DNA of 64,000 bases from Escherichia phage vB_EcoM_Lutter (NC_054924.1); one strand, 5' to 3'. Counted from the first letter of the stretch, positions 15,661 through 21,765 are shown. Made by a program: numbers and translations. The notes: generated from the sequence alone by a model not told the origin.

Positions 15661-17000
<1,340 letters not shown>

Positions 17001-17099: not shown

Positions 17100-17300
17100 A
17101 TGGTACAAAAATTAATGGCACTTGTTAATGCCATAAAAGGTAATAAAAAACGTATAGCTTTTACTATTTCTGCTATGGTAGGAATTTTACTCTGGAACTT
17201 TATTTTATCACCAATTGCAATTGCGCATGGTGTTAATATTCCAGTAGTTACTCTTGATACATTCGTAGATCTAGCATTTGCTTTAGTTGGGTTAATTTAA
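17100..17300 (+). CDS. small hydrophobic membrane protein candidate (66 aa), plus strand
   Basis: Only plus-strand ORF in an otherwise ORF-free 300-bp interval; AAAGGAGG SD 4 nt before ATG; two predicted TM helices; late-promoter-like GATAAATA upstream. Confidence 0.3.
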   Translation: MVQKLMALVNAIKGNKKRIAFTISAMVGILLWNFILSPIAIAHGVNIPVVTLDTFVDLAFALVGLI

Positions 17301-18325
17301 ATCTTGGCATATTTAGATAGCCGCATTTTAGCCATCAACCCCTGGGCAATATTATTTTTCATATATTCCATAATTTGTTCAGGGGTTGCACCTTCCTTTC
17401 TAATCATATCATTAACATCTTTTGATTTCCAGGGAGATTTATCCCAAAACATAACCCTTTCTCCTGCATCAACTAATTTAGTCATTCGTTTAATAGTGTC
17501 AGGGTGACGAGGTTCATTATCTAAAACCCACACTCGTCTATCTTTAAATGGAACAACTTCTAGGTCTAATTGACCACCCGTAATAGCTATACCATTTTCA
17601 ATAAAAAGTGAATCTATAGGTCCTTCTAGAACATATACATCACCATCTTTAACTCGTTCGACTCCATAGATTTTTGTTGCTTCAGGATAAGCTTTGATGG
17701 TGATATATTTTTGAGGAGCATCTTTCTTTAATGCACGTCCTTGAAACGACTCAGCTTTTCCATTAGCATTATAAATTGGAATAACAAGACGAGGCTCAGA
17801 AATTTCCTTTTTATATGTTCCCGGTGCTATGCTATTAACCAATTTAGGCCATTCGGTTGTAAACCAAAGATATTTCCATTTATCCTTTGGAATACAACGA
17901 GCTTTTACATATTTTATAATTGGATGGTCTTCCGCCAGTTTATCTAATCTAACACATGACGGAAGAGATTTAATTATTTTCTTCTCAGGTTGTTTAGGAA
18001 GTTCTTTAGGTTTTTCTACTGGACGACTTTTACCTTTTTCTTTTCTTATTTCAAAAATATACTCACGATATAAATCGGGTTCAAACTCCTTTAAATATAT
18101 TCCGATTGGTGCATGATAGTTACAGTTATAACAATGAATATTTCCTTCATTATTATCGCCATAATACCATCCACGGGCTTTATTTTGGTCGGTTTTTGAA
18201 TCTCCACAAACAGGGCATCTAAACCGCAATTTAAAAGTTGAACTATTATTTACTTGTGTGAATTTAGGTAAATGAGCTAATGCACGGTATGCAAACTCAT
18301 TATCAATCCAAGGTATTGATGACAT
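17297..18325 (-). CDS. 61: DNA primase
   Basis: 342-aa ORF with zinc-ribbon (CPVCGD...CYNC) and TOPRIM-like region; T4 gp61 length. Confidence 0.9.
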   Translation of the reverse strand: MSSIPWIDNEFAYRALAHLPKFTQVNNSSTFKLRFRCPVCGDSKTDQNKARGWYYGDNNEGNIHCYNCNYHAPIGIYLKEFEPDLYREYIFEIRKEKGKSRPVEKPKELPKQPEKKIIKSLPSCVRLDKLAEDHPIIKYVKARCIPKDKWKYLWFTTEWPKLVNSIAPGTYKKEISEPRLVIPIYNANGKAESFQGRALKKDAPQKYITIKAYPEATKIYGVERVKDGDVYVLEGPIDSLFIENGIAITGGQLDLEVVPFKDRRVWVLDNEPRHPDTIKRMTKLVDAGERVMFWDKSPWKSKDVNDMIRKEGATPEQIMEYMKNNIAQGLMAKMRLSKYAKI

Positions 18326-18327
18326 TT

Positions 18328-18492
18328 TTACTCTTCTTTTTCTTTAGATTCCTCTTTCTTCTTTTTAGGAATCTGTTCAGGACCTTTATTTACTACAGCA
18401 CCTGACGTTGTTCCAGTAGAGATATTTTCAGGATTACCACCTGAATCTCCAGCGACCATATCTTCTTTAATAAATTCTTTATATGTTTTCAT
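18328..18492 (-). CDS. hypothetical small protein (61.1 position, 54 aa)
   Basis: ORF below cutoff (MKTYKEFIKEDMVAGDSGG...), fills the gap upstream of 61. Confidence 0.45.
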   Translation of the reverse strand: MKTYKEFIKEDMVAGDSGGNPENISTGTTSGAVVNKGPEQIPKKKKEESKEKEE

Positions 18493-18493
18493 A

Positions 18494-18850
18494 TTAACCT
18501 CTATTCATAAAAGCATTAAAAATTTGGTCATCAATAGATGGTGCAGTAATATTTTCTGCATCATTTAGCAAATCATTAATTTCATCAGATAGCATAACAC
18601 ATGTACCTTTATTTCCTGTAATTGTTACTGCACAATTACGAACGTTTTCTTTATCAAATTTTAGGTTAATATTTTCGTAGTGAAAATCCTTTAATGCCGA
18701 ATATATCTTTAAAATGAAATTGTCTTTTACTACAATAAACCCAACCTCACTATTAAAACGCGGTTCATGGAAACTGTAATAAACCTTTTCATCTATAAAA
18801 TCGTATGAAATTTTTTCCATTTTTAAATATGAAAATTCAGAACTATACAT
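18494..18850 (-). CDS. single-domain paralog of the 61.2-position protein
   Basis: 118-aa ORF; last 14 codons plus the stop/start junction nearly identical at DNA level to the end of the 18852..19484 gene. Confidence 0.55.
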   Translation of the reverse strand: MYSSEFSYLKMEKISYDFIDEKVYYSFHEPRFNSEVGFIVVKDNFILKIYSALKDFHYENINLKFDKENVRNCAVTITGNKGTCVMLSDEINDLLNDAENITAPSIDDQIFNAFMNRG

Positions 18851-18851
18851 A

Positions 18852-19484
18852 TTAACCTTTATTCATAAAAGCATTAAAAATTTGATCGTCAATAGAAACT
18901 TTTACTTTAGGCTGTTCTTCAAACGGTAATTCATATCCACATATTACAATTTTGTGATCGATACCAAAATACACAGAAGCAATATTATTAATATTATTTT
19001 CAGTGAAATCTAAATCAACATCAATATCTTTTTGACTAACGCTCAAAGGATAATTAATACGAATAATTCGATTATCTTTAACAAAGATTCCACCGACATA
19101 CTCTGTGCTGCGTTTAAAGTTTACACGTTTCCTAAATGAAAAATATTCAGGTTCTTTATGGGCTCGACTCATAGGGCTTAAAGTGTATTCCGAATATGAA
19201 ATATCAAATCCTACACCTTCAATATGAGCCAAAGTATCATGATTAAACCAATTATAATCGTATGCCAAATCCATTAAATTGTAATATGTGAAAGGCACCG
19301 GATTAACATCATATGTTGTACCTTTAAAATCTGCCCAGGCAACGATTTCGTTATCTTTAACAATTACAAAAATTGTGCCAATAAGATATCTACGGTTATT
19401 TTCATCAGGTGTTATATTATAACATTGTGCATCAGGAAATTTACCGTATTTAAACGGTGGATTTTTGTGCATATAATAAATCAT
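18852..19484 (-). CDS. two-domain protein (61.2 position)
   Basis: 210-aa ORF with two internal repeats of a VKDN-containing domain. Confidence 0.55.
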   Translation of the reverse strand: MIYYMHKNPPFKYGKFPDAQCYNITPDENNRRYLIGTIFVIVKDNEIVAWADFKGTTYDVNPVPFTYYNLMDLAYDYNWFNHDTLAHIEGVGFDISYSEYTLSPMSRAHKEPEYFSFRKRVNFKRSTEYVGGIFVKDNRIIRINYPLSVSQKDIDVDLDFTENNINNIASVYFGIDHKIVICGYELPFEEQPKVKVSIDDQIFNAFMNKG

Positions 19485-19485
19485 A

Positions 19486-19779
19486 TTATTCGCCTGTGAT
19501 TTCGGTTACGATATTTTTGTTATTAAAGTTTTTATCGCAATACAGAACATAATTATACTGCATTACACCACCAGACTTAAGTTGTTTTTGCACTTCAGCT
19601 TTCATTTCAGGACGATCACGCTCAACGATATTCATAATATCTGCTTCAATTTGAGTTTCAACCTCAGTCTGATCTGCAGTCATAGACCATTCACACAAAT
19701 CTTTATCATAACCTGCCATAGCAGGCTGAGCAGCACAAGAAGCTAAAGCAAAAATTGTAGCAAAAATAAATTTTTTCAT
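19486..19779 (-). CDS. sp: spackle periplasmic protein (superinfection exclusion)
   Basis: 97-aa ORF with cleavable signal peptide; matches T4 Sp size and location. Confidence 0.75.
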   Translation of the reverse strand: MKKFIFATIFALASCAAQPAMAGYDKDLCEWSMTADQTEVETQIEADIMNIVERDRPEMKAEVQKQLKSGGVMQYNYVLYCDKNFNNKNIVTEITGE

Positions 19780-20096: not shown

Positions 20097-20279
20097 TTAT
20101 CCTCGGCAATCCACTTCACATACTTTCTTGTCATCAATGAAAGCTTTAACTAATGCTTTATTAACTTCAGCATACTGAGTAGTAGCCCATTGAACGTCAT
20201 CTTTCATCATTGTGATTTCTTTAGTAAACATGCTTTCATTCTTAAACCACCCCATAAAAACTACCTTTACCAATTCCAT
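20097..20279 (-). CDS. dmd: Dmd-like antitoxin (inhibitor of RnlA/LsoA toxins)
   Basis: 60-aa ORF between 61.4 and 41; size and position match T4 dmd. Confidence 0.65.
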   Translation of the reverse strand: MELVKVVFMGWFKNESMFTKEITMMKDDVQWATTQYAEVNKALVKAFIDDKKVCEVDCRG

Positions 20280-20308: not shown

Positions 20309-20339
20309 ACTATACCATAGTCTTGTCAGCTTGTAAACT
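20309..20339 (-). promoter_or_regulatory. T4-type early promoter with -10 inside a 9-bp inverted repeat
   Basis: GTTTAC, 17 nt, GTATAG; ACAAGACTA/TAGTCTTGT inverted repeat brackets the -10. Confidence 0.5.
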
Positions 20340-21765
20340 AAAATTTTAATTCATTCGCCAAAGCATCTAACTGAGCTCGAGTCGATTCGTTTCTTTGATA
20401 GCGATTCTGTTCAGCCTGAATCTGTTGTGAACCTGCTACTTCGTTCACTTCAGTTGGAGTAGAATCTTGTTCAATTTCTACCCATTTCTGATTTCCTTTT
20501 TGAACACCCATCAAAAACTTATTCCATTTATTCTTATCACCATATCGTGATTTGATTTGCTTAATGAGTTGTTGTTCAGCAGCTGCTAACTCCTCGGTTT
20601 CAATGACCGCAAGCATAAAATCAGCTGTCGCTGGAAGACCAGCAGATTCTGCGATATCACTCATGTTAACATCGGAAGAGTCCCAAGCTTGTTTACCAAC
20701 CTGTGCTGCAGTCCAAAGAACAGTTTCAGTTTCAACAGCCAGAGCACGCAATTCTTCTGCGATGGCTTTAACAGCTGTGTAACTATTTTCTGAATAAACT
20801 CTGATGCGGCAAGATTTACAAATACCTAGATAGTCGACAATAATGATTGTTGGAACAAAATTTTTCTTGAGCTTCAATTCATTCAAGAGAGACCTGAATG
20901 TGTTAGCATCTGCCCCACCAGTAGGATACTGTTTAACGATTAAACGACCGAGAGTAGATTTCTCACGCCATTTTTCCATTTTTCCTTTATACTCAGCGTA
21001 AGAAATATGCCCATCATCAATGTCATCAAGAGAAACATCAAGCATATTAGCATCAATACGCTTAGCACAGACTTCTTCTGCCATTTCCATGGAGATGTAA
21101 AGAACATTATGTCCGAGCTGCAAATAATCTGCTGCCAATGAACACAATCCTAATGACTTACCAACGTTAACGCCAGCCATTAAAACGTTCAGTGTTCCAG
21201 TCTCAGCTCCGCCTTTAGTAATTTTGTTCAGAATTCTGAGTTTAAATGGAACCTTACGAGCTTTATTCATATAAGATAGCCAACGTGCTTCGTAGTCATC
21301 CATCCAATCATGACCAACGTAACTATCAAATGAAATTGATAATGCTTGGCGCATGATGTCAGGAATAGCACCAACATCCGGCATTTTCTTATTTCGTTTT
21401 TCCGGAGGAAGTTCAGCATTAGTTTGAATTTCGATTATTTTAGACGTAGCATTAAACATCGCCCTTTGCTGAACATATTTTTCTGTTTCTTTTATTAACC
21501 AACTGTGGTCTTCCGGAGAATCAGCCAGTTTTGAAATAAGTGTTTTTACACCAGAATATTCTGTTTCAGTAAATGAACTATTTTCTAATGCAACATTTAA
21601 CGCATTAATAGATGGAACGCTATGATACTCATTGACATGAGATTTAATTAATTTGAATGTATTTTTAGCTGGACCACTTTCAAAATATTCTGAATCCATA
21701 TATGGCCAAACTTTTGAAAAATAAGCTTGATCAAATATGAGATGAGAAAGAATAATTTCTACCAC
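20338..21765 (-). CDS. 41: replicative DNA helicase (DnaB-like)
   Basis: 475-aa ORF with Walker A GVNVGKS; T4 gp41 length. Confidence 0.9.
   Translation of the reverse strand: MVEIILSHLIFDQAYFSKVWPYMDSEYFESGPAKNTFKLIKSHVNEYHSVPSINALNVALENSSFTETEYSGVKTLISKLADSPEDHSWLIKETEKYVQQRAMFNATSKIIEIQTNAELPPEKRNKKMPDVGAIPDIMRQALSISFDSYVGHDWMDDYEARWLSYMNKARKVPFKLRILNKITKGGAETGTLNVLMAGVNVGKSLGLCSLAADYLQLGHNVLYISMEMAEEVCAKRIDANMLDVSLDDIDDGHISYAEYKGKMEKWREKSTLGRLIVKQYPTGGADANTFRSLLNELKLKKNFVPTIIIVDYLGICKSCRIRVYSENSYTAVKAIAEELRALAVETETVLWTAAQVGKQAWDSSDVNMSDIAESAGLPATADFMLAVIETEELAAAEQQLIKQIKSRYGDKNKWNKFLMGVQKGNQKWVEIEQDSTPTEVNEVAGSQQIQAEQNRYQRNESTRAQLDALANELKF

Follow-up and report, generated by a model that had tools for sequence, protein, structure and literature searches.

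Two neighbouring genes in the genome of Escherichia phage vB_EcoM_Lutter (NC_054924.1) end in nearly the same DNA and hand over to the next gene at nearly the same stop and start codons. A preliminary description of this locus took the repeated junction to be the footprint of a gene duplication or of an inserted cassette. The question is whether the repeat records such an event, or has another origin. The window, by which we mean the whole analysed stretch of 64,000 nt, belongs to a T4-like phage (Tequatrovirus). Its gene order is as in T4, and all genes of the stretch lie on the minus strand. The features needed here are:

Gene 41: 20338-21765, minus strand.
dmd: 20097-20279, minus strand.
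61.4 homologue: between dmd and sp in the listed order, minus strand.
sp (spackle): 19486-19779, minus strand; upstream edge of the variable cassette slot, ending GAA TAA T ATG and abutting adfA.
adfA (T4 gene 61.2 homologue), 210 aa: 18852-19484, minus strand; two VKDN-containing halves and a PF23813 match.
Repeat copy A: 18848-18896, minus strand; the last 14 codons of adfA, TAA, a spacer T and the next ATG.
118-aa gene (RB32ORF033c / phrog_4122): 18494-18850, minus strand; predicted to encode a short, single-domain, AdfA-related protein.
Repeat copy B: 18490-18538, minus strand; the last 14 codons of the 118-aa gene, TAA, a spacer T and the next ATG.
Gene 61.1, 54 aa: 18328-18492, minus strand; downstream of the second tail copy.
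Primase gene 61: 17297-18325, minus strand.

The junction repeat between the two genes is real. A repeat search returned a direct repeat of 49 nt (18490-18538 and 18848-18896) with 46 of 49 positions identical and a start-to-start distance of 358 nt. It had earlier been placed near 18488-18536 and 18842-18895 with about four mismatches; the location was right, but the borders were a few bases off and the mismatches number three. A search allowing up to three mismatches found these two copies only in the 64-kb window, and none in 100 dinucleotide-preserving shuffles. On the coding (minus) strand both copies read S I D D Q I F N A F M N (R/K) G, then TAA, T and ATG. Copy A consists of the codons at 18855-18896 (ending SIDDQIFNAFMNKG), TAA at 18852-18854, T at 18851 and the ATG of the 118-aa gene at 18848-18850. 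Copy B consists of the codons at 18497-18538 (ending SIDDQIFNAFMNRG), TAA at 18494-18496, T at 18493 and the ATG of gene 61.1 at 18490-18492. Coding sequence of the upstream gene (14 codons and the stop) accounts for 45 of the 49 nt, and we refer to the 14-residue peptide as the tail. Between the 210-aa and 118-aa genes there was no further DNA similarity: the next-best repeats were of 12-23 nt, at chance level, and blastn of the two genes without their tails gave a best E of 0.076 over 11 nt.

The 210-aa gene encodes, by its sequence, the anti-DarT factor AdfA, which is the product of gene 61.2 in T4. The window protein matched the Pfam profile PF23813, 'Anti-DarT factor A', from end to end (E = 2.5e-139, residues 1-210 on profile positions 1-211), with 72% identity to T4 gp61.2 and 82% to RB69-like AdfA. 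The published AdfA numbering begins at the second Met, which is M5 of the window protein (PMC11257639). The family is already known, having been described by LeRoux et al. 2022 (as cited in PMC11257639 and PMC9391042); its 118-aa relative has been annotated, yet is uncharacterised. The 118-aa protein is 99% identical to RB32ORF033c, annotated as 'similar to gp61.2' in the RB32 record. The PHROG families of the two proteins differ, the 118-aa protein belonging to phrog_4122, with no annotated function, and AdfA to phrog_3781. The 118-aa ORF is a real gene, because it is under purifying selection (dN/dS 0.11-0.35 across pairs) and its AlphaFold2 model is of good confidence (mean pLDDT 82). The model shows one domain with one VKDN hairpin: a five-stranded sheet and two helices, with a sixth short strand between those helices. 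At the C-terminus a low-confidence linker (residues 102-105) is followed by the tail as a separate short helix (106-115). Structural homologues in the PDB gave no functional lead for this protein, and the family had no NCBIfam matches. A phmmer search over 1.84 billion representative proteins returned three related clusters and one weak match (P0022, 1267 aa, E = 3.6e-4) that is probably spurious; with so few clusters, the family is narrow.

How closely the 118-aa protein is related to AdfA depends on how the tail is treated. The whole protein scored 31.9 bits against PF23813 (cut-off 27, E = 1.1e-7), on profile positions 113-211 only. The precomputed Pfam label on its database clusters is also PF23813, and with the tail included it is 37% identical to AdfA residues 111-210. 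Without the 14-residue tail there was no Pfam match at E≤10, and hhalign gave a probability of 19%, on an alignment to the N-terminal and not the C-terminal half of AdfA. Much of the apparent similarity is the tail itself. Some similarity was found in the bodies: BLASTP without the tail aligned residues 21-91 with AdfA 111-186 (32% identity over 79 aa, E = 2e-4), and the phrog_4122 profile matched AdfA 112-210 at 44 bits (E = 4.5e-11), where cross-matches of the tail alone reach about 17-20 bits. Foldseek searches of viral models with the 118-aa model returned a 212-aa protein, a possible AdfA by its size (E = 4.7e-5), and a 145-aa protein of the Gaprivervirus phage VR25 (E = 1.7e-4). The AdfA model was poor (pLDDT 50), and structural comparison through it was dropped for this reason; only the order of secondary structure elements was used, which is hairpin-strand-helix in both halves. 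As had been noted earlier, both proteins contain VKDN, at residues 41-44 of the 118-aa protein and at 42-45 and 135-138 of the 210-aa protein. The architecture of two domains in about 208-216 aa is not that of the 118-aa protein, which has one domain. We conclude from these comparisons that the 118-aa protein is probably a distant, ancient single-domain relative of AdfA. To call it a single-domain version of the two-domain protein is fair, provided that the kinship, which is with the C-terminal half, is understood as distant and old.

The tail is not confined to these two genes. In all loci examined, proteins of three body types end alike, in [S/D][I/V]DDQIFNAFM[N/K][R/K][G/D]. Tequatrovirus and RB69-like phages have this ending on AdfA. 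On the 118-aa type it occurs in Tequatrovirus, in Gaprivervirus and in the more distant P0014 and P0020, and on a 145-aa type (phrog_8539) in Gaprivervirus and related contigs of about 170 kb. With tails removed, no profile-profile similarity was found between the 145-aa type and either AdfA or the 118-aa type, and its sequence link to the family is the tail alone. After the tail, all loci examined have a stop, a single base and then an ATG, which starts a gene of one of four kinds: 61.1, a 118-aa type gene, a 73-aa gene or a 63/65-aa gene. Among the tails examined the DDQIFNAFM core had no amino-acid changes, while seven of its eight degenerate third positions varied between genera; the constraint is therefore on the peptide. 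A degenerate form of the pattern was confined to T4-like contigs, each with one or two occurrences: 16 contigs of IMG/VR and 12 from metagenomes had it. It was absent from the bacterial and archaeal genomes searched, one for each of 185,579 species, and host mimicry by the tail was rejected. The tail helix may be a functional element common to the family.

If the peptide is constrained, near-identity of the DNA need not record a DNA-level event, and the two were compared using codon usage from the long ORFs of the window. Ten of the 12 degenerate codons are identical between the window tails, against 6.65 expected (P = 0.04, or 0.16 when weighted by codon rarity). All tail codons are preferred ones except one GAC per copy, at the two differing positions. 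Since the excess of matching codons is only marginal, the identity of the tail DNA in the window is largely explained by a conserved peptide together with codon bias. Evidence for homogenisation at DNA level is marginal here, and the earlier argument that identical DNA implies a recent DNA event is weak. The picture is different in other genomes. In Kha5h and RB32 the tail pairs match at 48 of 49 nt. In three Gaprivervirus loci (L005, L007 and L011) the tails of a 145-aa gene and a 118-type gene (117-119 aa) have the rare codons GCC, TTC, AAG, CGA, CAG and GAC in common, with P = 2-6e-5 in the loci tested (L005/L011 and L007). Tails of different genes in one genome differed at 1-3 of 42 nt, and tails of the same gene type in different genera at 7 of 42, which is the reverse of the pattern in the gene bodies. 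The shared rare codons and the within-genome similarity indicate concerted evolution of the tails, probably by gene conversion, in at least some lineages.

The occupancy of the locus varies between phages. Comparison with T4, T2, T6 and the RB phages, which had been proposed earlier, showed that the 118-aa gene is missing from T4, T6 and RB3 and present in T2 and RB32; with T4 and T6 lacking it, the ORF is not universal among T-even genomes. Four states were found:

AdfA only: T4 and T6.
Both genes: this window, RB32, Kha5h and slur03.
118-aa gene only: T2.
Neither gene: RB3.

Counted at a coverage of at least 80% in the phage record collection, the 118-aa gene is present in 297 records, 156 of them with the AdfA-118 junction and 141 with sp directly followed by the 118-aa gene. 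About 359 further records have a single tail, on AdfA only. The half-size relative is found in about 45% of sequenced T4-like coliphage records, and it is the sole family member in about 21%, including T2, a phage treated in the literature as naturally without an adfA homologue (PMC11257639). The single tail of T4 aligns to both window copies with an offset of 358 nt, and the empty site is exactly one repeat unit. This T4 tail is wholly of the copy-B (61.1-proximal) type, with no visible hybrid. A connector, TTAGAGG(T/C)TA(G/A)T, joins sp to the next ATG in loci of the T2 and RB3 types; its T2-type form ahead of the 118-aa gene, TAGAGGTTAGTATG, matches the end of the tail at 13 of 14 bases. 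Genomes with both genes occur with T4-type and with window-type adfA alleles, and the parts therefore reassort. The Gaprivervirus-like locus L043 has no 118-type gene and its 145-aa gene abuts the 73-aa gene; it retains a tail of the upstream type (..KRD), which a simple mid-tail crossover would not yield.

Two further variants were seen in this region. The sp gene of T2 (L002, about 1445-1472) has one base inserted when compared with L008, T4 and the window, and ends ...NKNNHR* instead of ...NKNI(I/V)(A/T)E(V/I)(V/T)GE*; the cause is either a true frameshift or an error in the sequencing. RB3 (L023, 1284-1538) has an extra gene, annotated 'goF mRNA metabolism modulator', between 61.4 and sp, a further cassette variation in the same island.

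Which explanation fits these data? A tandem duplication in recent times, which copied the 3' half of adfA to give the 118-aa gene and left the repeat as a remnant of the duplicated DNA, would account for two adjacent genes in the same orientation and for the alignment of the 118-aa protein, tail included, to AdfA 111-210. We regard it as barely credible. DNA similarity is confined to the 49 nt, and the bodies (the 118-aa protein against the C-terminal part of AdfA) have a dN of 0.77 and a saturated dS. Full-length relatives of the 118-aa gene (116-122 aa, 46% identical) occupy the same locus position in Gaprivervirus and keep the motifs EPRFN, GYIIVKD and NV..CA..ITGN. The dS between window and Gaprivervirus is 1.66 for the 118-type gene and 1.45 for the neighbouring sp, and these similar values would make the gene, judged by synonymous divergence, as old as the split between Tequatrovirus and Gaprivervirus. 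The same tail also stands in single-copy genomes and on the third body type. The footprint of a recent duplication that had been suggested is not borne out, as the bodies are synonymous-saturated, another genus has 118-type relatives and every family member bears the tail. Of the broader proposal of duplication or insertion it holds that the repeat bounds a presence/absence polymorphism, but not that it is the scar of a recent event. A mobile element with a target-site duplication was also rejected: the one ORF in the 358-bp unit is that of 118 aa, with family matches to AdfA/PHROG only, and the 'repeat' already exists as the tail of single-copy family members. It is also highly improbable, though less so than recent duplication, that the nucleotide sequence itself is selected, as a promoter or as a hairpin masking the Shine-Dalgarno sequence for translational coupling, with the peptide incidental. 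The AGAGGT in the last two codons of copy B is likely the Shine-Dalgarno sequence of 61.1, the arrangement of stop, one base and ATG is invariant, and ATT TTT AAT is nearly invariant at third positions. The RNA at the 118-61.1 junction (window 18460-18560, minus strand) folds with z = -2.17, 3 of 200 shuffles folding as well, and pairs UCUAUU (the Ser-Ile codons at the tail start) with AAUAGA (Asn-Arg, at the tail end), covering the Shine-Dalgarno. However, the adfA-118 junction has no equivalent fold (z = +0.37), and by inspection the pairing is lost in Gaprivervirus and RB69-like tails; the masking hairpin was set aside as present at one junction only and not conserved, by inspection, in other genera. 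Against selection on nucleotides also stands the variation of the core's third positions between genera with its amino acids unchanged. No sigma-70-like promoter or terminator was found at either repeat copy and promoter-like sites were not enriched, so the promoter or terminator reading was rejected. A MotA-type middle promoter (AATGCTTTTA, 12 nt, TAATAT) was considered in the repeat; its predicted start would fall within the next gene.

Less remote, but still unlikely, is an insertion in this lineage: recombination with a co-infecting phage, across the short homology in the tail or the Shine-Dalgarno sequence, would have brought a 118-aa cassette, complete with its tail, into an sp-adfA-61.1 locus of T4-like form. 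The both-gene state would then be derived and the repeat an insertion joint. The single repeat copy at the empty site of T4 and T6 is as this would predict, the T2-type connector could be the crossover site, the two adfA alleles found in both-gene genomes imply reassortment, and T4 is known to recombine at microhomologies (PMC9391042). The tail, however, pre-exists on every family member and was not made by the event; Gaprivervirus likewise has a tail-bearing gene followed by a 118-type gene, so that the tandem layout is old; and the direction of the event is not readable from the tails. Insertion differs from the explanation that we prefer only in the polarity of the last event. We consider it probable that the repeat reflects tandem AdfA-family members sharing a conserved tail and junction, with cassettes gained and lost at that tail. 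Two anciently diverged members would lie head to tail between sp and 61.1. Every member, whatever its body, would carry the same tail, stop, one base and next ATG, and the shared tail on adjacent members would therefore produce a direct repeat of about 49 nt. Selection on the protein would keep the tail constant, modelled as a short C-terminal helix on a flexible linker, and the last two tail codons would supply the Shine-Dalgarno for a translationally coupled downstream gene. Strong codon bias, plus gene conversion in some lineages at least, would hold the tail DNA near-identical. Because cassettes share no DNA homology other than the tail, recombination within it would add or remove exactly one whole unit; through the 49-nt repeat the 118-aa cassette would be precisely lost, or gained in a mixed infection. 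All four combinations (AdfA only, both, 118 only, neither) are found in nature, with breakpoints at the tail. The repeat is the expected by-product of two family members in tandem and no scar of a recent event.

The strength of the putative Shine-Dalgarno sequence differed with the gene downstream. Where a tail lies just upstream of a 118-type gene, its last two codons were AAA GGT, AGA GAT or CGA GAT in 17 of 17 loci examined (window 18851-18860, compared with 18493-18502, and L003, L004, L005, L007, L009, L010, L011, L024-L027, L047, L048, L051, L055 and L059). Each of these endings weakens the GAGG Shine-Dalgarno. Ahead of 61.1 and of the 63/65/73-aa genes the tail still ends in (A/C)GA GGT, L043 being the sole exception, and in T2-type phages a full AGAGG stands ahead of the 118-aa gene. 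The weakened sequence upstream of 118-type genes may tune translation of the downstream cassette.

Family and location make a small toxin-binding inhibitor, of a specificity unlike that of AdfA, the most likely role for the 118-aa protein. It has the C-terminal tail, the VKDN hairpin motif and the operon slot of AdfA, and its body is weakly similar to the C-terminal half; it differs from AdfA in being half the size with a single domain, in belonging to a separate PHROG, in losing its Pfam match with the tail, and in the residue aligned with position 164 of RB69 AdfA. That residue has been reported to decide whether RB69 AdfA neutralises DarT1, His doing so and Arg not (PMC11257639). The aligned residue is His in T4, Arg in the RB69-like locus L018, Asn in the window AdfA (N167 from the first Met, N163 in published numbering) and Asn72 in the 118-aa protein, so neither window protein has the DarT1-neutralising His. 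The Asn of the window AdfA is a third allele state at this specificity-determining site.

A bolder reading is possible, though we hold it doubtful: that the tail is a portable C-terminal docking helix, that the slot between sp and 61.1 is a combinatorial anti-toxin array swapped tail to tail, and that the 118-aa protein independently inhibits a DarT variant or another toxin. Units would then be exchanged, lost and gained by tail-to-tail recombination, as a coding-sequence analogue of PeSL shuffling. With PeSLs the present repeat has in common that short conserved sequences flank accessory genes, that indels between related phages fall exactly there, and that recombination between neighbouring copies is the proposed mechanism. 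PeSLs, in contrast, are intergenic and hold a strong sigma-70-like promoter and a terminator stem-loop, whereas the repeat is coding sequence plus a stop/start junction without promoter or terminator consensus. It was rejected as a PeSL regulatory cassette, with 45 of its 49 nt coding and no promoter-like or terminator-like site at either copy. Closer in place are the T4 events at dmd-tifA, in the same neighbourhood, in which a segment is precisely lost or gained with one repeat left (PMC9391042). In this same region T4 readily deletes and amplifies DNA bounded by direct repeats of only 6-10 bp (PMC9391042). The dmd-tifA events were seen in laboratory work, at arbitrary matches of 6-10 bp (PMC9391042), whereas the present repeat is of 49 nt, conserved and functional, and its events are inferred from natural variation.

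AdfA is one of few characterised phage inhibitors of toxin-antitoxin defence. Together with dmd and tifA it makes up the 'anti-TA island' of T4-like phages, whose other genes have been flagged as candidates (PMC9391042). Published surveys score phages as adfA-plus or adfA-minus only, and the half-size relative goes uncounted. If the 118-aa protein is active, the reading of DarTG resistance patterns in T-even phages would change. The repeat in itself is an ordinary consequence of tandem family members; more is gained from the tail's presence on three body types, from the four-state polymorphism and from the uncounted AdfA-like gene. The shared tail provides a testable handle both on the indispensable part of AdfA-type proteins and on the reshuffling of cassettes in the 'anti-TA island'.

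Variation was also observed within adfA and its surroundings. Between the window and T4 (L001) adfA has 85% nucleotide identity and the adjacent 61.1/61 segment 97.5%. The N-terminal 60 or so residues of the window AdfA are very unlike those of T4 and nearly identical to those of RB69-like AdfA, and this near-identity suggests exchange of alleles across genera. In Elenatom (L003, 868-1490) adfA is split into ORFs of 98 and 64 aa, and it is intact in the near-identical metagenomic locus L009 (2358-2990); the short gene is kept in both, as a diverged allele of 119 aa with 76% identity to that of the window. Elsewhere in the window, a 186-aa ORF (16440-17000, minus strand) gave a sub-threshold match to the Pfam DpnII restriction endonuclease family (E = 0.0045, 16.8 bits against a cut-off of 23). 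The ORF has a D...EIK motif, adjoins the dam methyltransferase gene and has no counterpart there in T4; a possible GATC-related nuclease beside Dam would merit attention.
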